Program-made: the position numbers and the translations under genes
In this document: positions 4,596-33,765 of the stretch, piece after piece
How the letters are laid out: each line of letters starts with the position of its first letter
Position numbering within the stretch: the stretch's first letter is position 1
Notes under the pieces: model-generated
What the model was told of the DNA's origin: nothing
The model's database searches: none
The model's input: only the letters and a program-made list of their open reading frames with translations
NCBI GenBank assembly: GCA_963797555.1
Contig: CAWCPV010000007.1
Coordinates: forward strand, 148,085-212,084
Source of the DNA: an uncultured Gammaproteobacteria bacterium
GTDB lineage: Bacteria; Pseudomonadota; Gammaproteobacteria; CAWCPV01
Reading direction: 5' to 3'
Length of the DNA: 64,000 bases

Positions 4596-6412
4596 TCAGA
4601 CAATCCAGGACAATGGGTCTTCGTCCGGGGTCGGCAGGACACCGGGGCTGTCGATGAACAGGCGATGCCAGATGGCGAATTGCAGCAGGGACCAGATCTC
4701 CCGGGAAACCGGGTGTCCTGCCCGCTGGGCTTCGAGCATCTCTCGCACCCCCTGAGGGCAGAACCAGGCCTGGATGGCGGGGTGGCGAGGAAGGTGGGCG
4801 ATGAATGGTCGAGCACCGGGCCGCGCAGCCACTCTCCCACAGGGACGTGGAAGCCGCGCTTTCTGCGGCGCAGGTGGCCACGCGGCAGCATTGGCTGGGC
4901 CCAGGCTTTCAGAAGAACCTTGCCATGCCGGGAGCGCACCTTGAGCTGGTCGGGGAGTGATAGTCCGAACTCGAGGATGCGATGGTCGAGAAAGGGGACG
5001 CGGCCTTCGACGCCGAAGGCCATGAGCATCCGGTCCACCTTGACCAGCAAGTTATCAGGAAGGGCTGTCCGGATGTCGACATACTGCCTGCGCTGCAGAG
5101 CGCTCCAGCCTTCCGGGCAGGACTGCCACGCCTCTATGAAGGGTAGCCGCGCCGCTGCCCGGGCGGCGGCGAGCTCTGGCCCGAAGACCCGGCTGATCCA
5201 GCGGCGCTGCCATCGGCTGCGGGTACGGAAGCCGCCCGACCCCGGCGCCGTGAGATTCTTGAGCCAAGACTTGGCCGGCGATGCGCGGTAGCGCCCATAG
5301 CCGGCGAAGACTTCGTCCCCACCTTCCCCCGTAAAGACCACTTTTAGCTCCTGACCAGCGCGTTCCGCGAGGATGGACATCGGCAGACACGCATAGTCCA
5401 ACATGAGGTCGTCGGCCGCCCACACCGTATGCGGGAGATGACGGAACAGGCTGCGCAGGTCGAGGGTGAGAGGAGTGTGACGGGCGTTGAAGTGCCGGGC
5501 AATGCGGTCCGCGTCGGCCAGCTCGTCCTTCATCTCCACCCCGGTGTAGCCCACCGAGAAGGTCTGAATGGGCCGCTCCTGGGCGCGCGTAAGCAACGCC
5601 AAGAGGGCCGCGGAGTCAGCGCCTCCCGACAGGAACAATCCGTATGGAACGTCGGAGCGCAGGTGCTCGCGCATGACGACATTCATCAACTCGTCGAAGG
5701 TCTCCCGAGCGTCCTCGAAGCAATAGCGCTGAGGCGCGACGTCCAGGGCCGACCAGTAGCGCCAGGCCTCCATCTGCAGATCGGCCCGGATGGCGATCGC
5801 CTCGCCCGGGAGGACCCGGTGGATGCCCTGGAGGATGGTCTCCCGACCCGTGTGGAACTGGTTATGGAGGAACTGGGCCAGAGCGCCCGGGTGGATCTGC
5901 GGTGTGCGCGGGAGCTGCGGCAGAAGGGCCTTGATCTCCGAACCGAATACGATTCGGTCGGGCAGGACCGCGTAGTAAAGTGGCTTGATACCCAGCCGGT
6001 CACGGGCCAGGACCAACTCCTTGCGCGCACGGTCGTAGAGGGCGAACGCGAACATTCCGTGCAGATGACCTAGGAACTGGCGCCCGTACAAGGCATAGGC
6101 GTGGAGGATGGTCTCGCTGTCGGAGCGGGTGGCGAAGCGGTAGCCGCTGTGTTGCAGTTCGGCCATCAGCTCGACGTAGTTGTAGACCTCGCCGTTCGCC
6201 ACTAGGGCCAGCCTGGCCCCGTCGGCGAGGAGTGGCTGGTGTCCTCCACCAACGTCGATAATGGACAGGCGAGTATGGGCAAGACCAACTGGCCCATCGG
6301 TGTGGATGCCCACATCATCGGGCCCTCGATGACGGAGCAGGTCGCCCATGCGCCGCAGCTCATCGTCACGCGCCGCGCCCGCCCGCAGATAGATGCCAGC
6401 GATACCACACAT
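4596..6412 (-). CDS. asnB: Asparagine synthetase (glutamine-hydrolysing) AsnB-like amidotransferase, apparent frameshift near 4775-4835
   Basis: N-terminus MCGIAGIY (Ntn glutaminase Cys2), then the SGGADS PP-loop (LFLSGGADSAALLAL). The C-terminal tail (AIQAWFCPQGVREMLEAQRAG...LLQFAIWHRLF) lies in a different frame (ORF 4596..4832). The 989-aa read-through ORF is an artefact of stop-poor GC-rich DNA. Confidence 0.75.
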
Positions 6413-6581
6413 CTCGATTACCCGTCAGGCGGCCGTTGCCCCTCTTGCCGCAGCGCTGCTCCCGGTCGCTCCCGCTGGCGAGTCAAGGGACAGACGCTCC
6501 ACGCGCGCGGACCTCACGACGCTCGTGTGCTCGGGGACGAGGGGGAAGAAGGAGGTGACGGTAGAGATTCTGCAGGCCCGC

Positions 6582-7728
6582 TCAATTCCGCTGGCTCCGG
6601 CTGTTGGCAGAGAGCCCGAGGGCAAGCAGGTACTCTTGGCTACTCGCCTCCAGGGTGTACCTACGCGCGGCAGACTGCAGCAAATCGCGCGGGCGTGAGT
6701 CAGCCAGGGCGGCGAGCATGGCTTGCGCCATGGCGGTAGGGTCCCCGACCGGCACCAGCCGACCGAAGCGGCCGTCCCCCAGGATCTCTCGCGGTCCGGT
6801 GGGACAGTCGGTGGAGACCACGGGCAGCCCCAGGGCCAATGCCTCCACAAGGACGGCGCCGAAGCCCTCCCAGAGGGAGGACAGCACGAACAAATCGGCA
6901 GCGGCCATGTAGGGATAAGGGTTGGGTTCGAAGCCCGGCAGCGAGAACGTCGCCCTGGACGCCGAGTTCCCGGCTGAGGGCTTCTAGACGCTGCCGCTGC
7001 CTGCCCTCGCCGAGGATGATCAGACGGCAGGGCCGCTGGCGGCGCATTGCGGCAAAGGCCCGCAGCAGCGTCTGAAAGTCCTTCTGGCGCCGGAGGCCGC
7101 CGACCCCCAGTATCACTGGCGTCTCCTTGTGAAGAAGCCAGGCATGAGGGAGCGGCGCGTTGGCCAGCCGCTCCAACTCCGGCGTTACGACAGGGTTCGG
7201 GACCACTCGGACGCGGTCACTCGGAAGACCGGTTATTCTCACTACATCCTCGGCGACGCCGCGCGAGACGGCGACAACGCCGTCCGCCCTGGCGTACATC
7301 CGACGGACCGCGCGTAACTTGCGCCAGCGGTACAGCCCTCCCCGGCCACGCGCCTCGAGCCGGCCCGACAGGCTGGTTCCAGTGATCAGGACGCAGCGCA
7401 CCGGAACCCCAGCCCAACGCTTGGCGCGCAGCGAGAGGCGGTCGTCGCTGCCTTTCCCGGAAAGGACCACGTGCGGTCGCGCGGCTCGCAGGTAGCGAAC
7501 TGTGGCGAGAAGCGCCCGCACGCCACGCGAGGAGCCGATCTCCAGCAGCCTGGCCTGCGGGGGCAGCGACGCCAGGGAACGAGCGGTGGCCTGCCGCACC
7601 ACGAAGTCCACTGTGACGCCGCGCTGGACCATGCCGCCGGCCAGGTTCACCAGCATGCGTTCCACACCACCGTCACCGAAGGAGGGTATGAAGACGCAAA
7701 GCCTGTATGGGGGCTCACGGCTGTCCAT
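6582..7728 (-). CDS. GT4 glycosyltransferase with an apparent +1 frameshift near 6943-6951
   Basis: ORF 6700..7728 carries the N-domain to ...LGVQGDV. ORF 6582..6908 in the +1 frame carries the C-domain (preceded in-frame by [13 protein letters not shown]). The junction sequence GACGTT(C)TCGCTG matches the context at 2390-2398. Confidence 0.75.
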
Positions 7729-18390: not shown

Positions 18391-20526
18391 TCACTTGCTG
18401 ACATGGATAAATGCACCGTCCCAATCCTCAGCCGGGGGATTGTGCCGGAAGTGCCTGACCCGCGCCATCAGTGCTTGTGTGGGTGGATCGCCTCCCAGTT
18501 GCGGCATCTCTTGGAGAACCCTCTCCGCTTCGTCCCATGCGCGTTCCTGATAAGCCCGAAAGGCCGCTTCGTAATGCTGGCACAGGTCGATCTGCTGTGG
18601 CGTGGCCAGGTCCTTGGGGGCAATGGGCTCGTACACCCGAACCGCATTGCTCTTGCCCTTCACCTTCAGATAGTCGATCTGACGGCCGACGAAGCGTTCC
18701 CGCACCGGCTCCCACGCCGACTCGCCGATCAACATACGGCTGCCATAGGCCTTGTTGAGACCCTCGAGACGCGATGCCTGGTTCACGGTATCGCCGATGG
18801 CCGTATAGTCGAACCGCTCGCGCGAGCCCATGTTCCCGACGATGCATTCGCCCCGGTCGATGCCGATGCGCACCGCCAGCGGTAAGTCCGGGTAAAGGGA
18901 GGCGACGTAGGCGGCAAAGCGCTGCTGACATTCCAGGGCCGCCGCCACCGCCAGCTCGGACTGCTGGGCCTGATCCACGGGGGCCCCCCAGAAGGCCATC
19001 ACGGCGTCGCCGATGAATTTGTCTACCGTCCCTTGACGCGCCAGAATAACCTCGGTCATCTGGGATGTATAGTCGTTCAACATCGCCACCAAGGCTTGGG
19101 GTTCCAATCGCTCCGCCAGGGTGGTGAAGCCGGCCAGGTCGGCGAACAGGACAGTGATCTCCCGTTTCTCACCCCCGAGTTCCAGGCCGTGGGGCGACTG
19201 GATGATGCGTTGCACCACCTGCGGCGAAACGTAATGACTGAAGGCGCTCTGCAGGAACCGCCGGCGCCGACCTTCCGAATGGTAGCGGTAGGCAGAGGCC
19301 AGAATCAGGCCGCTCAGCGCACAGAGGATGAGCAAGGTCACGTCCCAGACCATCCCCTGGCGGAAACCGAGCTGGGTCGCCGCCAGGCCGCCGCTCAACG
19401 CGCCAGCGCTGAGCAGGGAAGACACCGACGACCGTTGGACCAGCACCGTGGAAGCCACCGCGGCCAAGGTCACTAACCCGGTCAAGAGAAGATTCCAGGC
19501 GCCGGCCGCCAAGTGCAGAAAATCTTTGTCCAGGGCGTTCGAGAGCAGTGTCGCCTGGAGGAAGGCCCCGGGCGTCACCGCGCTGACCGGTGTGGGCTTG
19601 AAGTCGAGGAGGCCGGGCGCCGTATAGGCGACGAAGACGTAACGGTCACGGAACACTTCCGGCGCGATGGGCGGCGTTTCACCTTTGGAGTGCATGACCG
19701 CCGATCGAATCACATCGACCGCCGAGAGGCGCTCGAACTGCTCGCCGCCGCCGCGAAAGCGCAGCAGTAGCCTGCCGGCGGAATCCACCGGCAAGCGCCG
19801 CCCGTCGAGACTCATGCCGTCCTCGTTGCCCCACCGCACCTCGCTGCCTTTCCCCACCAAAGCCGCCAGACCGAGGGCCGGCAGCAGACGCCCGCCAAGG
19901 ACCACGAAGGGAAGGGCGGAGCGATACACCCCGTCTTCATCCGGTCCTTGGGTGACGAACGCGACGCCGGCGGCGGCAGAGGAGATTGGCTCCACTGGCA
20001 GCGAGACGGTTGCCCGGGTGAGGGCATCGGGCGGCGTCCCGCGAAACCGGATACCCAATGCCGCCGACGCCTTGCCGCCCGCGGAATCACCACGAGAGAC
20101 GGCGGCGGCGAGATAAACCTTGCCGGAAGCGGCTACCGCATCGGCGAACTCCCGATCGATGTCCGGTCCGAATGGCGATTGGTTATTGAACAGCAAATCG
20201 AACAGGATGGCCTTGGCGCCGCCCATCGTTGCGTACTGCACCAACGGTTTATACAGGGTGCGGGGCCACGGAAAGGGGACGTTGTCCCGGTCGAAGTAGT
20301 CGAGGCTGCGCTGGTCGACCGCGACGATCAAGATGCGCCGGTCGCGGAACGCCGGGTCGCGGTGCAGCAGGTGTTGCAGATTGAGCGCCGTCAGGCGGAT
20401 CGGCGTGAGCGCCGGGGACTCCCCGAGGCCACCACCCAGCAGCATGGCGACCGCAGTGATGGCCGCTATTGCCAACCCCCTGGCGGTCGCGGTGGGGGGG
20501 CGGGTGGCCGCCGCCGTTTCCTTCAT
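18391..20526 (-). CDS. CHASE2 sensor domain + class III adenylate/guanylate cyclase
   Basis: Periplasmic CHASE2-like N-terminal half, then TM helices, then a cyclase homology domain (VLFADLAGFTTLAE...FIGDAVMAFWGAP...GDTVNQASRLE). Confidence 0.8.
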   Translation of the reverse strand: MKETAAATRPPTATARGLAIAAITAVAMLLGGGLGESPALTPIRLTALNLQHLLHRDPAFRDRRILIVAVDQRSLDYFDRDNVPFPWPRTLYKPLVQYATMGGAKAILFDLLFNNQSPFGPDIDREFADAVAASGKVYLAAAVSRGDSAGGKASAALGIRFRGTPPDALTRATVSLPVEPISSAAAGVAFVTQGPDEDGVYRSALPFVVLGGRLLPALGLAALVGKGSEVRWGNEDGMSLDGRRLPVDSAGRLLLRFRGGGEQFERLSAVDVIRSAVMHSKGETPPIAPEVFRDRYVFVAYTAPGLLDFKPTPVSAVTPGAFLQATLLSNALDKDFLHLAAGAWNLLLTGLVTLAAVASTVLVQRSSVSSLLSAGALSGGLAATQLGFRQGMVWDVTLLILCALSGLILASAYRYHSEGRRRRFLQSAFSHYVSPQVVQRIIQSPHGLELGGEKREITVLFADLAGFTTLAERLEPQALVAMLNDYTSQMTEVILARQGTVDKFIGDAVMAFWGAPVDQAQQSELAVAAALECQQRFAAYVASLYPDLPLAVRIGIDRGECIVGNMGSRERFDYTAIGDTVNQASRLEGLNKAYGSRMLIGESAWEPVRERFVGRQIDYLKVKGKSNAVRVYEPIAPKDLATPQQIDLCQHYEAAFRAYQERAWDEAERVLQEMPQLGGDPPTQALMARVRHFRHNPPAEDWDGAFIHVSK

Positions 20527-20682: not shown

Positions 20683-22449
20683 TCACGACCTCCGGGACAT
20701 GAGGCCGAGCAGGGTCGCTGCCGCCTCACGGGGGCCGCTTGCCTCGTAACCCGGAAGGCCGAGCCGGGTGCGCATCTGACCGACGAACACGCCGGCGGCG
20801 AACGCTGCCTCGAAGGTGTGCCGTGCGATGGCGTCGTGCGCGAGCGGCCGCTGGGCCGGCCCGAACACATTGGCGAAGTAGGTGCTCACCAGGCCGGTCG
20901 AGCTGGTCGTGCCCCTCGACATCGCGGTGCCCTCACGAAAGACGCGCACCGCGGCATCCACGGAGCCGAAGCGCTCGATGATGGGGTGCTGCTCGTCGAC
21001 CGGCTGGTAGTTGTTGGCGTACAGGAGAAAATCGATGGGATACCCGCGCTGCACCTCCTCGATCGTGGTCACCGGAAGGACGACCCGCGCGTTGACCTTT
21101 TGCGGGCTCATGATGATGGCCCGGTCGATCTGGCCGAAGGCGTAACCCCGCTGCAGGTCATCGAGGCGCACGAAGGCCCCGATCTCCGTCCCATAGCCGA
21201 GCAGTCGGCCGTCCCGTGCCACCTCGACCGATCCCATGTCGTCGGCCACGATACGCAGCTCCCCGACGACATCGTCGCCCAGCAGCCGCAGCGCCTCAAG
21301 CGTCTCCGACTTGCCGGTCGCGGTGTCTCCGAGGAGCAGCATAGTGGCCGCCACCCCGTTGCGCAGCACGACGCGCGCGAGGGCACCGTGGAACGGCATC
21401 AGCCCCTTCTTCATCACCGCCACGTTGTGCAGCGTGAGCGCCATCTTCTTCACATAGCCGAAGTAGCCGAACCGCTCTTCGAGCGGTACGGCGCCCACCA
21501 GCAGGTCGCTGGTCTCGTCGTCGTAAAACACGGTCGGGGCGTGGCCGAACCGCGCAAGGGCCTGCGGCGGTGCGCCATAAAGGTAGATCGCATCAGGGCC
21601 GGCTGCGACTTGCTGATCGCTGGCCATCTCGAACAGGTTGCCGAGCGCGAGCCCGAGCCCGGCGAAGCGCTGGTGGAAGTAGGCGAACACGACCAGGCGC
21701 CCGACCACCGCCGGGTAGCACATCCAGCGCTCCTTTTCGAGCGACATGCCGGCGAGCGGGTTCTCGTAGACCTCGACGAACTGTCCGGAGCGAGTGTTGG
21801 CGGGCGGGTCGAGGATAAGCGGCGGATACATCAGCAGGTGACGCACGAAGGGGATGCCGACGAGCAGGTCGCGGTAGCTTTCGGGCATGCGCCAAGCGCG
21901 CTGCACGGCGATGACGCCCATGTCGGCACCGGCCGGAACCTGCCGGTACACGCGCGGATGACTGGCGGTGATATTCTCGACCACGTCGCGATACAGGTCG
22001 CGCACGAGCTGCGCGAGGGTTTCGACGGTCCGGTTGAACGTGCGGTACGGGCGCCGGTCGTGGCTGTCGGGCCCGCCTTCGGAGTGGTTGACCATGAAAC
22101 GGTCGAAGCTCCGCCAGAAGTCGTACAGGCCCTCGGCGAGCTCGTGAAGAGCGGTGCGTTGACTGAGCAGCTTGGCGCTGTCCGGCGACGTGCCGGCGAT
22201 GCGTTCGAGCGGGTTGTGCGCCAGCACGCGCAGCACGTCCACGAGGCGCGCCCGCCGAGGCGGGTCGGCGGCGTCAATTTCAAGCTCGTCGAGCACGGGA
22301 GCCCTGTGTGCAGCGAGGCGTTCCAGGTACAAAGCGACCACGCGCTCGAAGGCGGCGCTTTCGACGAGCTCCCGCGTCGTCCCGCAAATGGTCCCCTCGG
22401 TATGCAGCACGAGCTGCCCGGGGCCTTCGTCCATCCTGAGAAGCGGCAT
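20683..22449 (-). CDS. Large uncharacterised protein with a C-terminal HPr-kinase-like P-loop domain
   Basis: LLLGDTATGKSETLEALRLLGDDVVGELRIVADD matches the HprK C-domain pattern (G.SG.GKSE.ALEL...LVADD). Start placed at the ATG at 22447-22449 (MPLLRMDEG...); the upstream part of ORF 20683..22860 looks non-coding. Confidence 0.5.
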   Translation of the reverse strand: MPLLRMDEGPGQLVLHTEGTICGTTRELVESAAFERVVALYLERLAAHRAPVLDELEIDAADPPRRARLVDVLRVLAHNPLERIAGTSPDSAKLLSQRTALHELAEGLYDFWRSFDRFMVNHSEGGPDSHDRRPYRTFNRTVETLAQLVRDLYRDVVENITASHPRVYRQVPAGADMGVIAVQRAWRMPESYRDLLVGIPFVRHLLMYPPLILDPPANTRSGQFVEVYENPLAGMSLEKERWMCYPAVVGRLVVFAYFHQRFAGLGLALGNLFEMASDQQVAAGPDAIYLYGAPPQALARFGHAPTVFYDDETSDLLVGAVPLEERFGYFGYVKKMALTLHNVAVMKKGLMPFHGALARVVLRNGVAATMLLLGDTATGKSETLEALRLLGDDVVGELRIVADDMGSVEVARDGRLLGYGTEIGAFVRLDDLQRGYAFGQIDRAIIMSPQKVNARVVLPVTTIEEVQRGYPIDFLLYANNYQPVDEQHPIIERFGSVDAAVRVFREGTAMSRGTTSSTGLVSTYFANVFGPAQRPLAHDAIARHTFEAAFAAGVFVGQMRTRLGLPGYEASGPREAAATLLGLMSRRS

Positions 22450-22886
22450 CGGTTCGGTGGGTCTCCGGTCCAGGCACTGCCGCCGGTTTGGTGCCGGCGT
22501 GATGGTGGACCGCGCACGAGCGGCGCGCATCCTGAGCATCAAGATATCATGGTAGCTTCGTGGAAGGGGCCAGAGGGTGGGCCAGAGGGCCTCACAGGAC
22601 TTGGCACCGGCGCTCGGGCGGGTGCGGCCGACTCCCACATCGGGAAGCGGCTCGCACGCGCCGTTGGCTGCCGCCGTCCGGGTCTCGCGAGATCGGCCGA
22701 GTGCTGGATCGACGAGGCTCCAATCCAAAGGCCCCCGGCGGCCGCTATGGGGATACGCTCGTGGCTGGGTGCTCCGGCCATGCGATGACGGTGAGGTCGG
22801 AGAGCGCGCAGACGGCGGCGGAGGGGGATCTCCGATCGAGGTCGATTCGGTGATTCGCAAAACGACGAACCGGAAGGGTACAGCTC

Positions 22887-23465
22887 ATGAGTGGGCCTTC
22901 AATCGTGTTCAGAACCTATAGACGGACGCCGGTCCGGCATTTCTGGGTGGTCCTGGGAACCGCCGCTATCACCGGGTGCGCTTCGGTATCTTCCGTAGAG
23001 CCGATGGGAGAACGCCCGAAAGAGGTCACGGCGCAGGTGTGGCAAGGGACCTGGATACACCAAGAGCATCCGGTGACCGTCAGGGTGTCGGACCCGCGTG
23101 CGGGATTGCTCGATGTCGCGTGGGTGGAAGAGAAGGAAGGTGCGCTAAAGCTCGAATCCTATCGGATCGCCCTGAGAGAATCCGCTGAATCGACCTTCGC
23201 GAACACCAAAGATCCGGGTCAGCCCGGTCGTTATCTGTGGGCCCTGGTCAAGCGGGAGGACGAACAGATCGTGGTGTGGACCCCGGACGCCGTCCAGTGC
23301 GCGAAGCGGGTTCAAGCGGGTGTGCTGGCCGGGACGGTCGGCAAGGGGGGAGACGTAACCTTGGGAAAGCTCTCTTCGAAGCAGATCAAACAACTGGCCT
23401 CTCCCGGTCAGGGCAGTTGCTTGAGGTGGACCGAGCCGCTGGTGTTCTTCCGCGTCGGAAAGTAG
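22887..23465 (+). CDS. Putative lipoprotein (192 aa)
   Basis: Signal peptide with lipobox (AAITGC|AS); no other recognisable domain. Confidence 0.5.
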   Translation: MSGPSIVFRTYRRTPVRHFWVVLGTAAITGCASVSSVEPMGERPKEVTAQVWQGTWIHQEHPVTVRVSDPRAGLLDVAWVEEKEGALKLESYRIALRESAESTFANTKDPGQPGRYLWALVKREDEQIVVWTPDAVQCAKRVQAGVLAGTVGKGGDVTLGKLSSKQIKQLASPGQGSCLRWTEPLVFFRVGK

Positions 23466-23889: not shown

Positions 23890-25704
23890 ATGCCGAAAGT
23901 CCGTAAAGGCTCCCGCTCCCCCTCCCTGGTGCCGAAAAAGCTCACCCGGGAGCGGGACCAGGTGCTCGAGTTCGTGCGTCGGGGTCAACAGCTCGCGAAC
24001 GTTCTCGATGACCCCGGCCTCAGCGGGGAGATCGACCAGCTTTCCGCCAGTGCCCTGAAGCCTTTTTTGTTCGTCGTCGTGGGCGAGGTCAAGTCCGGCA
24101 AGAGCAGCCTCATCAACGCTCTGCTGGAGGCCCCGGTGTGCGCCGTGGACAGTGCCCCCTGCACGACGCGTGTGCAGGAGATCAGCTACGCGGAGGAGGA
24201 GAGCCGCACCGAGGTCTCCGAGTTCGAGGAGCACCTGCACCTGCCCCATGCCATCCTGCGGCACATCGCCATCGTCGACACTCCCGGCACCAACTCCATC
24301 ATTCGTGAGCACCAGCGCATCACCGAGAACTACATCCCCCAGAGCGACCTGGTGCTGTTCGTGTTCTTCGCGAAGAACCCTTACACCGGGAGCGCCTGGG
24401 ACTTCCTGCGCTACATCAAACACGACTGGCAGCGCAACACCCTGTTCGTACTCCAGCAGGCGGACCTGCTGGATGCCGGGGAATTGGAGCGCACGCTATC
24501 GCTGGTCAAGCAGCAGCTCGCCGAAGAGAGCATTGCCGAGCCCGTCGTCTTCCCGGTCTCCGTGCTCACCGCTGAAGGCTTGGACGTGCTGCGCGAGTAC
24601 CTGCGCATCGAGGTGGTTCAGGGGCGGCAATTCAATAAGAGCATCTCGCTGACACACAACGTCCTGCGTTTCTTGCGCCGCCTGGAAGCCGCCTTGCGCG
24701 ATCACGAATGCCTCCTGCAGAACGATGAGACGTTGCTGGGCGAGCTGCGCCAACTGGCCGTCGGGTTGGGGCCGGAAGCGGACCAGGAATACGCGGCCCT
24801 GACGGCGAGGGCGCGGCACTACGCGGACGAGGCGCGACAGTGGCTGTTCGGGCAGGCCGTCGCGGCCGGCAGCTCGGGTGCTGATGTTGCCCGGGCCGGC
24901 TGGAGCTGGCGGGACTGGCGCTCGCTCCGGGAGCGCATGCGGCGCCTCGGGGCGGCTCTCGCGGAGCGCGCCGCGGTCGGGGAGGCTCTGTCCAGCGGCT
25001 GGGACAGGTCGCTGCGTACCGCCGAGCGCTTCAACCGGCTGCAGCTCGACCTGAACCGCTGTCTGTTTCGGGCACAGTTGCGGCGTATCGACCTCTACCG
25101 ACAACTGAAACGGCAGGTGGAGCAGCAGCTCGCTGCCATCGCCGCCGATCCCCCGTGCCTTGCGAAACCGCTCGACGATGCGCTCGCGCGCGGGCGTCAG
25201 CGAACCCTCACCCGGGCCCGCGACGCGGTCCAGAGCCTCGGCGAGCTCGGCCTGGAGGGCTCCATCTCGCGGCTTCCCGCGCTGAGCGCGCTGAGGCCCT
25301 GGTCGTCTGTCTACGGAGTCGCTCAGGTTGGTGCCGGGGCGGCTTGCCTGGTCGTCGGCTACCGCCTGGACGATCTGCTGGCGGGCTTGCTGCTCGGCGT
25401 GGTGGGCTATCTGGGAGCCGGGTACGCTCTGGCCCGTCGGAGCCGGGCGCGTATCGGCGGACAGGCCGCGGCTGCGCTGGAGAAGAGCATCGAGGACGTC
25501 GACCGGCGGCTGCGCGAGACCCTCCTGACCCAGCCCCCCGAGCTGCAGGGCGCCATGCAGGATACCGTGGGCCGGTTCGAGCGCGACCTCGAGGAGCGGC
25601 GGGCTCGAACCGAAGAGCTGCTTCCCTCGGTCAACGCCTTGCGCGAGGACATCAAGCGCTTTCAATCGGAGGTGTGGGCCGATGCGGTGGAGGGTGACCA
25701 GTGA
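23890..25704 (+). CDS. Bacterial dynamin-like GTPase (BDLP), paralogue 1
   Basis: Dynamin-type G domain: G1 VVVGEVKSGKSSLINALL, G3 DTPGTN and a QQADLL block, followed by long helical stalk-like regions. Confidence 0.75.
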   Translation: MPKVRKGSRSPSLVPKKLTRERDQVLEFVRRGQQLANVLDDPGLSGEIDQLSASALKPFLFVVVGEVKSGKSSLINALLEAPVCAVDSAPCTTRVQEISYAEEESRTEVSEFEEHLHLPHAILRHIAIVDTPGTNSIIREHQRITENYIPQSDLVLFVFFAKNPYTGSAWDFLRYIKHDWQRNTLFVLQQADLLDAGELERTLSLVKQQLAEESIAEPVVFPVSVLTAEGLDVLREYLRIEVVQGRQFNKSISLTHNVLRFLRRLEAALRDHECLLQNDETLLGELRQLAVGLGPEADQEYAALTARARHYADEARQWLFGQAVAAGSSGADVARAGWSWRDWRSLRERMRRLGAALAERAAVGEALSSGWDRSLRTAERFNRLQLDLNRCLFRAQLRRIDLYRQLKRQVEQQLAAIAADPPCLAKPLDDALARGRQRTLTRARDAVQSLGELGLEGSISRLPALSALRPWSSVYGVAQVGAGAACLVVGYRLDDLLAGLLLGVVGYLGAGYALARRSRARIGGQAAAALEKSIEDVDRRLRETLLTQPPELQGAMQDTVGRFERDLEERRARTEELLPSVNALREDIKRFQSEVWADAVEGDQ

Positions 25705-25764
25705 GACACCAGTGGTCAGGGCCAGGGATGCGGTGCTCAGGTATCGAACAACCTCAGTCCCGTC

Positions 25765-25784
25765 ATTCCGGTGAATGCCGGAAT
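25765..25784. repeat. Perfect 7-bp inverted repeat hairpin (ATTCCGG-TGAATG-CCGGAAT), REP/RS3-like or terminator-like
   Basis: Lies in the 390-bp spacer between the two BDLP genes; the flanks are AT-richer than the surroundings. Confidence 0.35.
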
Positions 25785-26095
25785 CCAACCCTGCAACGTG
25801 CGCGTCCTGAATCTCGGGATATCGGCTTGCACGGGCATGACGTTTGGTACTGAACATGGCTGTCGTCCCAGGACGGCAAGGTGTGGACCGATGCGGTTCA
25901 CGACCACCCGTGAGCCCCCGCGCCGGTTTGGCGGTCCTGATGACCTGCCGGACGTCTTCCGTCTCGCCATGAGCCGTCCGGCCAGGCGTTTGGCCGCAGG
26001 TTCACGCTTACCGGCCACTCCGACAGCGGCCCGTGCTACCTTTGACTCCGGCCGGCGCAGCAGCGCGCCCTTCGAGTCCGCAGCGTACACCGACG

Positions 26096-27856
26096 ATGCT
26101 ACGTATTGCTAAATCCCTGTTCGACAGGAGCCTGGTCCCGAGCGCCCTGACCCAGCAGCGGGATCAGTTGCTGGGCTTCATACGGCAGGGCCAGCAGCTC
26201 GCCACCGTGCTGGGTGAGTCTGCGCTCAGCGCCGAGATCGACCAGCTTTCCGCCAGTGCCGTGAAGCCTTTTTTGTTCGTCGTCGTGGGCGAGGTCAAGT
26301 CCGGCAAGAGCAGCCTCATCAACGCTCTGCTGGAGGCCCCGGTGTGCGCCGTGGACAGTGCCCCCTGCACGACCCGGGTGCAGGAGATCAGCTACGGGGA
26401 GGAGGAGAGCCGCACCGAGGTCTCCGAGTTCGAAGAGCACTTGCACCTGCCCCATGCCATTCTGCGGCACATCGCCATCGTCGACACTCCCGGCACCAAC
26501 TCCATCATTCGTGAGCACCAGCGCATCACCGAGAACTACATCCCCCAGAGCGACCTGGTGCTGTTCGTATTCTTCGCGAAGAACCCCTACACCGGGAGCG
26601 CCTGGGACTTCCTGCGCTACATCAAGCACGACTGGCAGCGCAACACCCTGTTCGTGCTCCAGCAGGCGGACCTGCTGCCTTCCGACGAGCGCAAGCGCAC
26701 CGAGGAGCACATCCGCGAACAGCTCATCCAAGACGGCATCGAGAACCCCGTCGTGTTCGCGGTGTCGGTCAAGACCGGCAACGGGATGGGGGCGCTGCGC
26801 GACTATTTGCGCGCCGAAGTGATAGAGGGGCGCCAGTTCACCAAGGTCCAGTCCCTGGCGAATAACCTCATGCACTTCGTCGGCGGTCTGGACAAGCTGC
26901 TCCACGTACACGAACGGCTCAACCAGCACGACGAGATCCTGCTCGGAAAGCTCCATGGTCTCACCCTGAACCTGCAGGCCGAGGCCGAAGTAGACAGGCA
27001 GGTCGCCGCCATGATGGACGCCTGCCGGCGCCGCACCGAAGAAGCCGAGCGGCGCCTGCGCAAGCGCTTCCAGGGCCGCCATTCGTTCCTGGACAAGCTC
27101 GACACCCTCAAGAACGCGCTCGGCAGCGGGCACGAGGTACGGCAGTGGCTGGCCGATTTCTTCGCCCAGGTGCAGGCCGAGATCAGCCACGCCCTCTATC
27201 AGGACCAGTTGCGCTACTTCTCGGAGCTGCACCGCCGCTCCCAGGAGTTGGGTCAGCAGATGCTGGAAGTCCTGGCCAACCGTCCCGGCTACCTCAAGAA
27301 ATCCGCCTCGGATGCGCTGGCGCGCCGGCGCGACCAGACCCTGAGCGAGGTCCGCCAGCGCCTGGCCGCCCTCGACGACATCCGCCTCGAGGAGACCGTG
27401 CAGCCGCAGGCCTCGCTCGGGCGCCTGAACCGCCTGATCCTGGCCTACCGCCTGGCTCAGGGCGGGGCCGCGCTGGGGGTGCTGGTCCTCTCGGTGCATT
27501 TCGGCGACCTGTTCAGCGGCCTCATCCTCGCCGGTGTGAGCTACCTGGGCGTCGGGTATGCGCTGTTCGCGCGCAACCGCGAACGCCTGGAGACTCGATG
27601 CAGCCTGGCGTTGCAGGCGAGCCTAGCCGACCTGGAGCAGCGCCTGCGTACCGACATAGGGGAGCACCTGAACAGCCTGAAGGCGGTGGGCGACGGCGCC
27701 CTGACCCTGTTCGAGCGCGACCTCGGCGACCGGCGCAAGCAGACCGAGACCCTGGTCCGCTCGGCCCGCGAGTTACGCGACGGCATCCAGCGCTTCCAGG
27801 CGGCAGCGGCCGCGGCAAGGGCGGGCGGCGGGGCACAGACGGAGGGGGGGGTATGA
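26096..27856 (+). CDS. Bacterial dynamin-like GTPase (BDLP), paralogue 2
   Basis: Start at the ATG at 26096 (MLRIAKSLF...). The G domain is nearly identical to paralogue 1 over ~440 bp (26237-26677 vs 24031-24472); the rest of the protein is diverged (~50% identity). Confidence 0.75.
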   Translation: MLRIAKSLFDRSLVPSALTQQRDQLLGFIRQGQQLATVLGESALSAEIDQLSASAVKPFLFVVVGEVKSGKSSLINALLEAPVCAVDSAPCTTRVQEISYGEEESRTEVSEFEEHLHLPHAILRHIAIVDTPGTNSIIREHQRITENYIPQSDLVLFVFFAKNPYTGSAWDFLRYIKHDWQRNTLFVLQQADLLPSDERKRTEEHIREQLIQDGIENPVVFAVSVKTGNGMGALRDYLRAEVIEGRQFTKVQSLANNLMHFVGGLDKLLHVHERLNQHDEILLGKLHGLTLNLQAEAEVDRQVAAMMDACRRRTEEAERRLRKRFQGRHSFLDKLDTLKNALGSGHEVRQWLADFFAQVQAEISHALYQDQLRYFSELHRRSQELGQQMLEVLANRPGYLKKSASDALARRRDQTLSEVRQRLAALDDIRLEETVQPQASLGRLNRLILAYRLAQGGAALGVLVLSVHFGDLFSGLILAGVSYLGVGYALFARNRERLETRCSLALQASLADLEQRLRTDIGEHLNSLKAVGDGALTLFERDLGDRRKQTETLVRSARELRDGIQRFQAAAAAARAGGGAQTEGGV

Positions 27857-29337: not shown

Positions 29338-30652
29338 CTACCCGAAGGCGAGTTGGTAATACAGCTGCTCGAAGGCGCGGAAGCCGGGACAGAGCCGGCT
29401 GAAGCGCAGCTTCAGTCTGCGGGCGGTGGCGACCAACCGGGCGGCGAGGTACATCAGTTCCTGGAGGACGGTCTTGATCCGCCGGCGCTTGGCCGGATGG
29501 CGCAGGGGAGCCGACTCGCCGGTCAGCCCGATGAGCCCGATGAAGCGCAGGATGTTGTAGGCGAACACGGCAAAGGCGAGCACCAGGTCATTGGTGTCGA
29601 ATTTCCCGGAGGGCAGCCGTTCGATATCGAGGTCGGTCTTGAACTCGCTGTGGAACTGCTCGGAGGTCCCGGTACAGGGCGACGATCTCCGCGTCCGGAT
29701 AGGCGAGCGAGGTCCACCAGCCATCGAGCTCCAGCTCCGGTACCAACAGCGCCTGGCCCTTCTTGTCGATGGTGCGCTCGGTCACCCGCATCACCCGGCG
29801 AACGTGGTAGGTGTGCTCCCGATGGGGGTGCTCCTCGACGACGCTGAACAGCGCCACGCGCTTGCCGGGTCGGGGTGTCTCCCATGCCCCTTGGCGCTCG
29901 GCGCGCTCCAGCCAATGGGCAGGGTCCTCGCCCCGAGGGTTCCACTGGATAATGAAGTCCACCTCCTCTTCGAGGTAGCGCAGCCGGTTCTCCAAGGCGT
30001 CGTGGGCGCTGTCCTGGCGCACCAGCAGCGGCAGTTTGGTCAGGCGCCTGGCCCGCGGCAGGATGCGCTCCCAGACCTAGCCGAATTCCTTCTGACTGTG
30101 CTGCTTGCCTTCTCGCAGCTCACAGCCGACGCACCACCCTTCGGTTCCCACGTAGGTCGCGATCGGCGCATAACCGTCATAGCCGTGGTAGGTGCGCGAG
30201 ACTCCTTCTTGCTTGGTCCCGGAGTTGTCCATGGGAAAGACATCGATGTCCACCGGCACATGACCGGTCTTGAGCGCACTGACCGGTGCCTTGGCGTTGA
30301 CCATGAACTCGATATCGGCCTCGTCAATGACCTCCCGCAGGACCGCTGCGTGCTCGTCGAGACGCTGCCTCAGCGTTTCTGGCGAGGGTACCCGCTCCAG
30401 CCCCAACGCCTGGCGGAAGAAATCGTCCTCTCGGACGTTGGAGACCGCTTCGAAGTCGCTCTTGCCCAAACACATCAACCCCAGATAGCTCTTGGCTACG
30501 TCTTCATGGGAGATGCCGTGGCGTAGCGGGATCGCCTCCTTCAGCGCCTTGCCCAACCCGCTAAAGCGGTTGACGCAAAGACCGACCAAGGCCAGACCAG
30601 AATGGGAGGTGTAAAATTCCTCATCGGACTGCTCCAAGATGAACCGCTTCAT
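29338..30652 (-). mobile_element. IS1380-family-like transposase gene split into three ORFs (pseudogene or indel errors); element ends not resolved
   Basis: Consecutive minus-strand ORFs 30077..30652 (N-terminal part), 29588..30022 (middle) and 29338..29724 (C-terminal part, ...HSEFKTDLDIERLPSGKFDTNDLVLAFAVFAYNILRFIG...) together give a ~438-aa DDE transposase of the IS1380 type. Confidence 0.55.
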
Positions 30653-31608: not shown

Positions 31609-33673
31609 TTGATGGACTCAGTCGCGAAGCAATTAGAGGACATCCTGCGCGCCTACCAGGCAAAACCCGAGCTTATCCGCGAGCACTACAATGGTGAGGA
31701 ATCTGACCGGCGAGGCTACGCTGGACGCCCCCTGCTGGAGCTGATCCAGAATGTTGAGGATGCCCTCGCGGACGCGGAACAGCGGGGCGATATGCTGCTG
31801 GCGCTCACCGACGGAATGCTCACCATCGCCAACCAGGGTACTCCGTTCTCGGAGCGGGGCTTCCAGGCGCTTTGCGATCGGAATGACAGCCCCAATCGCC
31901 GCAGCCAGCGTTTCGTGGGCAGCAAGGGCACCGGATTCAAGGCCGTGCTCAACTGGTCTGACGGACTGGAAATCTACTCGGGGGCCATCGGGGCGCGTTT
32001 CGACCGAGTTGAGGCGGCAACCCGGATCCTTGAGGCTGTATGCGATGAGGGGCGTACGCGGCTCGATGCAGACGGGCACTGGCCAGACTCCCACATGCCC
32101 CTCCTGCGGGTGCCGCTACCGGCGATTCCGGACCAGCGCATGTGTCAGCTCCTTGGCGAAGGCTGGGCAACCGTCATTCGGCTTCATTTGTTCCCCGACA
32201 GGGTGACTGAAGTCGGCGACCAGCTGCGCTCGCTGGATCCGCGCGACCTACTTTTTCTCAGCCACCTCGGCGAGGTGACTCTGCGGCTGGACGGTGTACC
32301 GCTCACCTGGACACTGCACCGGCATCGGCATCGGCAAACCCAGGGCGTCGAATCCCACGACCTAGAGGTGCTGAAGGACGGCAGGACACACGCGAGCTAT
32401 CGGGTGCTGCGGAGACGCCTGCCGGATGTCCGCCCGGAGGAATCCGATGAGGTCGGGGACGTCGAGGTCGCGCTCGCCTACTGCACCGACGCGGGCGACC
32501 AAGCGACAGCGAGTTACGTCTACAATTTCTTCCCGACAGAGTGCCTTTCCCCCTTGCCGGCGATAGCGATTCACGGGACCTTCCTGCTCACCTCTGACCG
32601 CAACCACTTGCGCAAAGACGATCCGAGCTACCAGGACGCCTTGATCGCGGCCCTCAGCGAGCTGTGCGCAGAGTACCTGATCCCGGAGCTCGTGGATCGT
32701 TTCGGACACAGGGCGCTGAACTATCTGCGGCCTGGGCCGCAGGTGGCGGGCTCATCAGAGAGTGTCGAGCGCGTGCTCAGCGAACGGTTGGTCGGTACGG
32801 TCCGGTCGATGCCTTTCGTGCCCACGGTGAGCGGTCGCAACGTGGCTCCTAAGGACCTGCGGCTGTGGAGCCATAGGTTGGGAGATCTGCTCGACGAGCA
32901 TCCCGATGCGCCAGACGAACCGGCGCTTCCCCGTCCCGCTTGGTGGCGGCGCATGCTTCGTCCGCTGTCCGCGGGCGCCACTCGGAGAGGACGCTCAAAT
33001 GACCCATGGGATCCAGCCGTCCTGCACCAAGCATTGAAGGATTTGGCGGGGCGGCGGGATCTCATGGAAGACGCCTTGGCGAGACTGCTTGAGAAACTCG
33101 AACGATCGCAGGAGGACGCCCATGCGTACCTTCATAACAAGGGGATCAGCGAAGAAGACATCAAGCTCTGGCACCCGCCGGAAACCACGAAGCCGGATCT
33201 TCCACTGTCACCCCCAATTCGGCATCCCGAACCCGTGCCCATGGTCCCTCCGACCGAACCCGAACCTGAGCCAATTCCGCCTACGACCGGCGTCCCCGCC
33301 GTTACCGTCGGGGTACCGGCGCCCGAGCCGGTGGTTCTCCCTACGGAGATTCCGCTCGTGACGGTTGTCCCCCCGACCCCGCAGGTACCGCCCAATGTCC
33401 CCCCGAGCGGGGGGCCCGGCCGGGACCAGTCCGCTCGCGAGCACGGCACGACCGCCGAGGCGTGGCTTCGAAAACAGCTCAGCGATCTGTTCCAAGGGCA
33501 GTGCGAAGTCAGCGACAGACCAGACCGTAGCCAAGGCGGCGAGTCAGACATCGTCATCCGGAGGAACAGTGAAGATCTGCTGCACGTCGAGGCCAAAGCG
33601 GTCGAGAGAGGCCTAATCTACTGGAGCGAGGGTGAAGTTGAGAAGGCATTGCAGTCGGGAGACAGGTACGCTA
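31609..33673 (+). CDS. Sacsin-like GHKL (HATPase_c_3-type) ATPase + DUF3883 protein, 3' end cut by the IS66-like insertion at 33674
   Basis: N-terminus LLELIQNVEDALAD...LTIANQGTPFSERGF...FVGSKGTGFKAVLNW matches the sacsin/HSP90-like Bergerat fold. A Pro-rich linker follows, then a DUF3883-like nuclease-like block (GGESDIVIRR...LLHVEAKAVERG...). The last 10 codons of ORF 31609..33702 are IS-derived. Confidence 0.65.
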
Positions 33674-33765
33674 GTAACCGTTCAGACCCTCCCACCAGTT
33701 GATCGATGCGTTAAGAGCGCGTCCAGCGCAGCAGAGCCGCTCGGCTTGTCGTACACTCCCGGCTC

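Follow-up and report, generated by a model that had tools for sequence, protein, structure and literature searches.

Evidence for repeated gene conversion of the nucleotide-binding core in a tandem pair of bacterial dynamin-like genes

A 64,000-nucleotide stretch of DNA from an uncultured Gammaproteobacteria bacterium (GenBank assembly GCA_963797555.1, contig CAWCPV010000007.1, positions 148,085 to 212,084), which we call the window, carries two neighboring genes, A and B, that encode predicted bacterial dynamin-like proteins (BDLPs). The two genes (Table 1) are diverged paralogues, but about one quarter of each, containing the motifs G1 to G4 of the GTPase (G) domain, is almost identical at the DNA level. 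Here, we present evidence that this segment has been homogenized repeatedly by gene conversion, both in the window genome (W, with gene copies W_A and W_B) and in related lineages. A first-pass annotation of the DNA had recognized two adjacent, co-directional BDLP paralogues, and the open reading frames (ORFs), Dynamin_N matches and AlphaFold and Foldseek results bear this out. The longest ORF for gene B (26033-27856) opens at a GTG codon at position 26033. The ATG at 26096 is the start in all orthologues, where it begins the peptide MLRI(A/T)K, and in database entry P0019; the GTG is an unlikely alternative start.

By sequence and predicted structure, genes A and B encode bacterial dynamin-like proteins with the BDLP fold and are predicted GTPases. 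Both products match Pfam family PF00350 (Dynamin_N), with 80.5 bits for gene A and 83 bits for gene B against a cut-off of 27, and the top sequence match of gene A in the Protein Data Bank (PDB) is the Campylobacter jejuni DLP1/DLP2 pair of dynamin-like proteins (DLPs; 5owv, E 2e-11). An AlphaFold (AF2) model of the gene A product, calculated with an alignment of 84 homologues, has a predicted local distance difference test (pLDDT) score of 82. The model places a G domain at about residues 59-240 and predicts long helical bundles (helices at residues 231-334, 361-418 and 496-602) together with a glycine-rich, hydrophobic hairpin at about residues 472-520. The best Foldseek matches of this model are Nostoc BDLP (2j69), IniA (6j72), Cj-DLP1/2 (5owv), SynDLP (7zw6) and LeoA (4aur), with E-values of 1e-16 to 1e-13 for the top matches (Nostoc BDLP and IniA); differences in hinge conformation keep the TM-scores low (0.3-0.4). 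Four nucleotide-binding motifs are invariant across the 84-sequence alignment: G1 (G65-E-V-K-S-G70-K71-S72), G2 (T92), G3 (D130-T-P-G133) and G4 (Q189-Q-x-D192), the last of which is a variant QQxD in place of the canonical N/TKxD. By analogy with known dynamin-like proteins, the products of A and B would hydrolyze GTP and bind or remodel lipid.

A direct-repeat search and pairwise alignment of the two genes both recover the A/B repeat. In the ungapped register counted from both ATG codons, gene nucleotides (nt) 139-582 contain 11 mismatches in 444 positions, or 97.5% identity. This tract ends sharply on both sides (nt 138/139 and 582/583): A and B already differ at 15 of the 48 positions that precede nt 139, and mismatches are dense from nt 583 onward. 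The first-pass annotation had described a tract of about 97% identity with abrupt ends, and its coordinates agree with ours to within 3 nt. It had also put the paralogues at about 50% identity over most of their length, which holds as a whole-protein average (51%) but not outside the tract, where amino acid identity is 36-50%. Residues 1-46 of A and B are 60% identical in nucleotides and 50% in amino acids, and residues 195-604 are 55% and 36% identical, respectively. The description of the tract as the GTPase core needs a similar adjustment. All four motifs lie inside the tract (residues 47-194), but the G domain runs to about residue 240; in the model, the tract spans the helix before beta1 through G4 and leaves the G-domain remainder, residues 195-240, outside.

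Several statistics set this tract apart from the rest of the two genes. Mismatches inside and outside the tract differ in frequency with a Fisher p = 1e-40. The probability of at least 433 matches in 444 positions is 1e-17 even if the underlying identity were 85.6%, the maximum for this segment among ten control pairs from related loci (see below). By the Nei-Gojobori (NG86) method, the W_A and W_B tracts have a synonymous divergence (dS) of 0.093 and a nonsynonymous divergence (dN) of 0.006, compared to 0.84 and 0.62 for the flanks. The first-pass annotation had suggested such a codon-level comparison of dS inside and outside the tract. The 11 differences are scattered through the tract; six are unique to A, three are unique to B and two are sites where both copies differ from the sister lineage. 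The A-specific variants are at nt 282, 302, 474, 492, 531 and 561, and the B-specific variants are at nt 279, 339 and 366. The longest exact A/B run is 112 nt. No third copy of the tract, which could have served as a donor, was found within the window.

We compared the window with related loci. The A-then-B tandem is present at 11 other loci (L001, L002 and L006-L014) in gammaproteobacterial metagenome-assembled genomes (MAGs) or metagenomes, and two contigs that overlap, L005 and L015, together yield a twelfth A-B pair. These relatives are labeled Ectothiorhodospiraceae or Gammaproteobacteria MAGs; the genome and metagenome scans gave just 4 and 2 loci, respectively. The genes that neighbor the pair are unrelated from locus to locus, and the A-B pair is therefore a conserved two-gene module. 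In ten control pairs, the segment that corresponds to the tract is 76-86% identical in nucleotides between A and B, with dN of 0.06-0.13 and saturated dS of 0.59-1.9, and A-B identity within a genome is no higher than A-B identity between genomes (76-86%). Exact A/B runs in these unconverted pairs reach only 20-65 nt. Because the ten control pairs are saturated at silent sites, the identity of the window copies goes beyond what protein constraint or codon bias provides. The first-pass annotation had called for a comparison of orthologous pairs and had taken uniform divergence in them to speak against conversion. The ten pairs without near-identity in the segment are pairs of this kind, and they support a lineage-specific conversion; the expectation had thus been stated the wrong way around.

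Some homologues depart from the tandem arrangement or from the even divergence of the controls. L003 (2514-4259) and L016 (1244-2995) each contain a single dynamin-like gene that is B-type throughout and lacks an upstream A gene, and the pair is therefore not universal in the family. A TonB-dependent receptor gene precedes the lone B gene in L003. We considered whether this gene is an A/B hybrid formed by deletion across the repeat and rejected the idea, as its N-terminus is fully B-type. L002 contains a 65-nt exact match between A and B (5400-5464 versus 7361-7425, gene nt 220-284) within a tract that is otherwise 79% identical, and both copies share the lineage-specific peptide CTDRVQEIN; the match may be a micro-conversion patch. 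Six further homologues (P0003, P0008, P0016, P0046, P0048 and P0049) are fragments on short contigs that start inside the tract, at residues 63-158. Short-read assemblies tend to break in the tract, and catalogues will therefore under-represent intact pairs.

Phylogenetic trees of the tract and of its flanks conflict. In the neighbor-joining tree of the flanks, A genes and B genes form two cleanly separated clades in which the species branch in the same order. In the tree of the tract, by contrast, W_A groups with W_B (100% bootstrap), L005_A groups with L015_B (100%) and L001_A groups with L006_B (98.5%). This conflict, together with the identity at silent sites, supports gene conversion. The sister population of W is represented by L005, which carries an A gene with 81% amino acid identity to W_A, and L015, whose B gene shares a 90% cluster with W_B; the contigs have 259 nt in common at 99.2% identity. 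L005_A and L015_B are identical throughout nt 116-582, and their divergence starts at nt 583, so that the 3' end is the same as in the window. When the four sequences are compared, 27 tract sites have W_A and W_B agreeing with one another and differing from a shared state in L005_A and L015_B, and no site has the orthologous pattern. The tract dS between W and the sister lineage is 0.32-0.37 whereas that between the W copies is 0.09, so the last event in W took place after the split from the sister lineage.

A third homogenized tract is found in MAG CAYQDX01, which was assembled with SPAdes. Contig L001 stops exactly 55 nt into its B tract, and this stretch is identical to the contig's own A copy; the first 55 nt of contig L004, and no more, match A nt 516-570 without a difference, and the sequence beyond them is B-specific. 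Breaks of this kind are the k=55 hallmark of a genuine repeat, nt 139-570, that was collapsed during assembly. L001_A and L006_A are sisters in the flank tree, L006 is unconverted, and the L001 A tract groups with L006_B. The 5' end of the homogenized segment is at nt 138/139 in two lineages and at 115/116 in the third, and the 3' end is at 582/583 in two lineages and at 570/571 in the third. Together, the sequences indicate that at least three lineages have homogenized the segment independently and with nearly the same end points. The recent gene conversion proposed by the first-pass annotation is thus supported by dS (0.09 versus 0.84) and by the tree conflict, but it was recurrent in at least three lineages and not one event. 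The tract tree hints that earlier conversions may have occurred at the root of each of the remaining two species groups, within which the A and B clades are sisters at bootstrap values of 38-54%. The identity excess there is only 1-3% and may be due to shared codon usage.

The direction of transfer was mainly from B to A. In the tract tree, the converted sequences lie beside L006_B and L007_B and are separated from L006_A and L007_A. Ser52, Ala121, Arg174, Tyr175 and most other diagnostic sites are B-type in both W copies, which argues for transfer mainly from B to A. W_B also carries an A-type patch at nt 177-187 (window positions 26270-26282) that includes Val63. This residue is A-type in both W copies, whereas all ten control B genes encode Ile63 and have an A at nt 187, and the presence of Val63 in gene B therefore shows that some A-to-B transfer took place as well. 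The GC content at third codon positions (GC3) is 0.905 in the W_A tract and 0.842 in the rest of the gene, and the corresponding values for L001_A (tract at 6139-6570) are 0.946 and 0.777; L005_A shows no rise. The raised tract GC3 may reflect either the B-type origin of the segment or GC-biased conversion.

We propose that homologous recombination between the genes, probably of the RecA-dependent type, repeatedly copies a segment of about 430-470 nt, mostly from B to A and occasionally from A to B. The nucleotide-binding core (residues 47-194) thereby evolves in concert within this genome and its closest relatives. Paralogue-specific sequence is retained in residues 1-46, in the final third of the G domain, in the helical stalk and in the membrane paddle. 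Strand exchange could begin only in the tract segment, because only there does purifying selection keep DNA identity high (76-86%, with exact runs of 20-65 nt), and it would halt where homology falls off steeply, near nt ~138 and ~582. Events that run past these points would replace residues specific to one paralogue, and selection would probably eliminate them. A first conversion would lift the identity to about 100% and make later conversions easier, which could produce a self-sustaining state in the clade; such a state would fit a homogenization that is limited to one sub-clade yet persistent there. If the cores are identical, heterotypic A:B G-dimers would be equivalent to the homotypic A:A and B:B forms. 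This is evidently tolerated, presumably because G-dimerization uses the same surface in both partners.

The closest known parallel for the gene pair is C. jejuni Cj-DLP1/Cj-DLP2 (5owv), which is also encoded by adjacent co-directional DLP genes and combines a G domain with a helical neck/trunk and a membrane tip. Bacterial DLP genes are reported to occur mostly as operon pairs, and Cj-DLP1/2 to require heterotypic G-dimerization for GTP turnover (PMC6104087). Sequence identity to Cj-DLP1/2 is just 13-16%, however, and a homogenized G core has not been reported for the C. jejuni pair. The two Cj chains differ strongly as matches to gene A (E 2e-11 versus 1e-5), and the G domains of Cj-DLP1 and Cj-DLP2 are therefore clearly distinct. 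Nostoc punctiforme BDLP1 (2j68/2j69) and Mycobacterium IniA (6j72) resemble the gene A product in domain order and in the hydrophobic hairpin near the tip (residues ~472-520), but share 13-15% sequence identity with it, and G4 in the window pair is QQxD rather than the canonical N/TKxD. The side-by-side, same-strand arrangement of Streptomyces DynA/DynB and Cj-DLP1/2 is found here and is kept across genomes, and a physical complex of A and B would follow the same model. By this analogy, A and B probably form a heterotypic, membrane-remodeling GTPase complex.

For the recombination process, a close parallel is provided by tufA and tufB, which undergo recurrent RecA-type, non-reciprocal transfer between paralogues. 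Like the tuf genes and rRNA operons, the dynamin paralogues of one genome resemble each other more than orthologues from different genomes do, their silent sites are homogenized, and the process is recurrent. Unlike them, the dynamin genes are homogenized over about a quarter of their length and are 36% identical in the remainder, whereas tuf and rRNA copies are homogenized over essentially the whole gene and are redundant. Gene conversion between bacterial paralogues such as these is a classic phenomenon (PMC5485169, PMC6053082, PMC8022953). The words "dynamin" and "GTPase" do not occur in the text of one of these reports, a survey of prokaryotic concerted evolution in 26 genes (PMC6053082). 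Arrays of type VII secretion system (T7SS) immunity genes, as described in another report (PMC9484751), are a further case in which homologous recombination between neighboring co-directional paralogues shapes a locus, but those arrays gain, lose and diversify many copies, whereas the pair studied here is fixed and has one homogenized segment. Gene conversion in paired bacterial dynamins was not found in the literature searched, where a single paper mentions the two subjects together, for eukaryotic Mx proteins.

Overall, we put the probability at roughly 90% that the locus is an ancient tandem BDLP pair, probably encoding a heterotypic GTPase complex, in which the nucleotide-binding core has undergone repeated non-reciprocal conversion. 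A number of points weigh against this reading. Both window copies are known from assembly alone. The contigs L005 and L015 were assembled from short-read metagenomes of different samples, and bubble-popping at a collapsed repeat could have raised the identity between their copies to 100%. The case of L001 and L004 is built on contig ends, from which the B copy is deduced. The 391-nt spacer between A and B is long, and the operon is only presumptive. We infer that the tract boundaries reflect either a homology cliff or selection, and heteromer formation, GTPase activity and the selective value of identical G domains belong to the same class of statement.

The near-identity could have arisen during assembly, either because a chimeric or collapsed path ran through the G domain of the other gene or because polishing homogenized two moderately different copies. 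The window contig is probably metagenome-derived, the relatives are all MAGs or metagenomes, and many database fragments of the family start inside the tract, where assemblers evidently struggle. The 11 copy-specific differences, however, argue that the two window copies were resolved separately, and the longest exact run between them is below the length of a typical read. The tract lies within a 619-kb contig. Chimeric joins need shared k-mers at both ends, and unconverted pairs share just 20-65-nt runs; mis-polishing homogenizes only copies that are already more than 95% alike. Moreover, two further independent assemblies contain the same repeat and ends, one of them by way of the k=55 breaks. 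We therefore consider an artifact very improbable. An explanation without recombination is weaker still, and we treat it as practically negligible. It would invoke strong purifying selection with codon bias, or an embedded DNA element such as an antisense gene, an RNA structure or an internal promoter. Conservation in the family is indeed highest in the G core, where dN is 0.06-0.13 in all pairs; GC3 is about 0.9, and both tract copies contain a promoter-like hexamer pair. But the same protein constraint applies to the ten orthologous pairs, which have a segment dS of 0.6-1.9, and W and the sister lineage differ at 27 tract sites at which the copies of each lineage agree. Rfam and tRNA searches for an embedded RNA gave no match, and antisense ORFs show GC1 > GC3 (GC1, GC content at first codon positions), as is typical of shadow frames. 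A recent duplication of the whole gene was also considered, but the flanks of all genomes separate into an A clade and a B clade that are deeply split, which excludes it.

If the segment was homogenized by conversion, it can still be asked whether selection favored identical G1-G4 cores in both partners, which we regard as unlikely. Under such selection, A:B G-dimers might stay compatible without slow co-evolution, or hetero- and homo-oligomers might be interchangeable; both proposals are tentative. Independent events with nearly equal end points and the persistence of the identity in three lineages would fit an adaptive origin, as would the inclusion in the tract of all the motifs that build the G-dimer interface and the need of Cj-DLP1/2 for heterotypic G-dimerization in GTP turnover (PMC6104087). 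In addition, a 444-bp direct repeat with copies 2.2 kb apart invites deletion, and yet both genes persist. Ten other lineages nevertheless keep the pair unhomogenized, including L006, the sister of the converted L001, so the pair does not need identical cores. Equal end points are also expected, without any benefit, from a homology cliff together with the loss of events that extend too far. It is likewise doubtful that selection keeps the cores identical by means of gene conversion, so that the partners share one co-evolving catalytic and dimerization module while their stalks and paddles specialize, with the tract ends marking a functional border.

The surroundings of the pair in the window are listed in Table 1. 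The A-B spacer has no terminator-like site, no Rfam match and no repeat elsewhere in the window; its final ~80 nt, just upstream of gene B, weakly resemble the spacers of sister lineages, and no other conserved element was found in it. Its 391 nt compare with about 120-170 nt in most relatives, and spacers of about 380-460 nt are found in L008, L010 and L011. The transposase pieces look like a broken insertion sequence (IS) about 1.5 kb downstream of gene B. None of the neighboring genes in the window is conserved beside the dynamin pair in other genomes, and they give no functional clue. In the sister lineage, L005 carries an RVT_1 reverse-transcriptase gene (627-1892) about 3 kb upstream of the dynamin pair, which is possibly part of a group II intron or a retron-type element.

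Table 1. Positions of the dynamin-like genes, the homogenized tract and neighboring features in the window.
Feature	Coordinates	Strand	Description
Gene A (P0001)	23890-25704	+	ORF, 604 aa; predicted A-type bacterial dynamin-like paralogue
Gene B (P0019)	26096-27856	+	ORF, 586 aa; predicted B-type bacterial dynamin-like paralogue
Conversion tract, gene A copy	24028-24471	+	Gene nt 139-582, aa 47-194; contains GEVKSGKS, Thr92, DTPG and QQAD
Conversion tract, gene B copy	26234-26677	+	433/444 match to gene A copy; main donor type
A-B spacer	25705-26095	+	391 nt, unique sequence
Adenylate/guanylate cyclase with CHASE2 sensor	18391-20526	-	Upstream of pair
725-aa ORF	20683-22860	-	No Pfam or NCBIfam family; coding-like composition, GC3 0.84
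192-aa ORF	22887-23465	+	No family; divergent from 725-aa ORF
IS1380-family transposase pieces	29338-29724, 30077-30652	-	C-terminal part NCBIfam NF033539 (E 2e-29); N-terminal part DDE_Tnp_1_4
Protein with sacsin-like N-terminal P-loop domain	31609-33702	+	Downstream of pair

These results place a known process in a kind of gene pair for which it was not found in the literature searched, and they do so for an event that is limited to one domain, is present in three lineages and can be compared with ten unconverted controls. The tract breaks short-read assemblies, and it can mislead the assignment of orthology and phylogenies built on the G domain. More generally, a conserved core inside diverged paralogues can seed self-sustaining concerted evolution. 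The dynamin partners appear to tolerate, and possibly prefer, identical catalytic and G-interface modules, and the specificity of each partner would lie outside residues 47-194. If selection does keep the cores identical, then the converted (W, L005/L015 and L001) and unconverted (L006 and L008) pairs would provide a natural comparison for what heterotypic G-dimerization needs.

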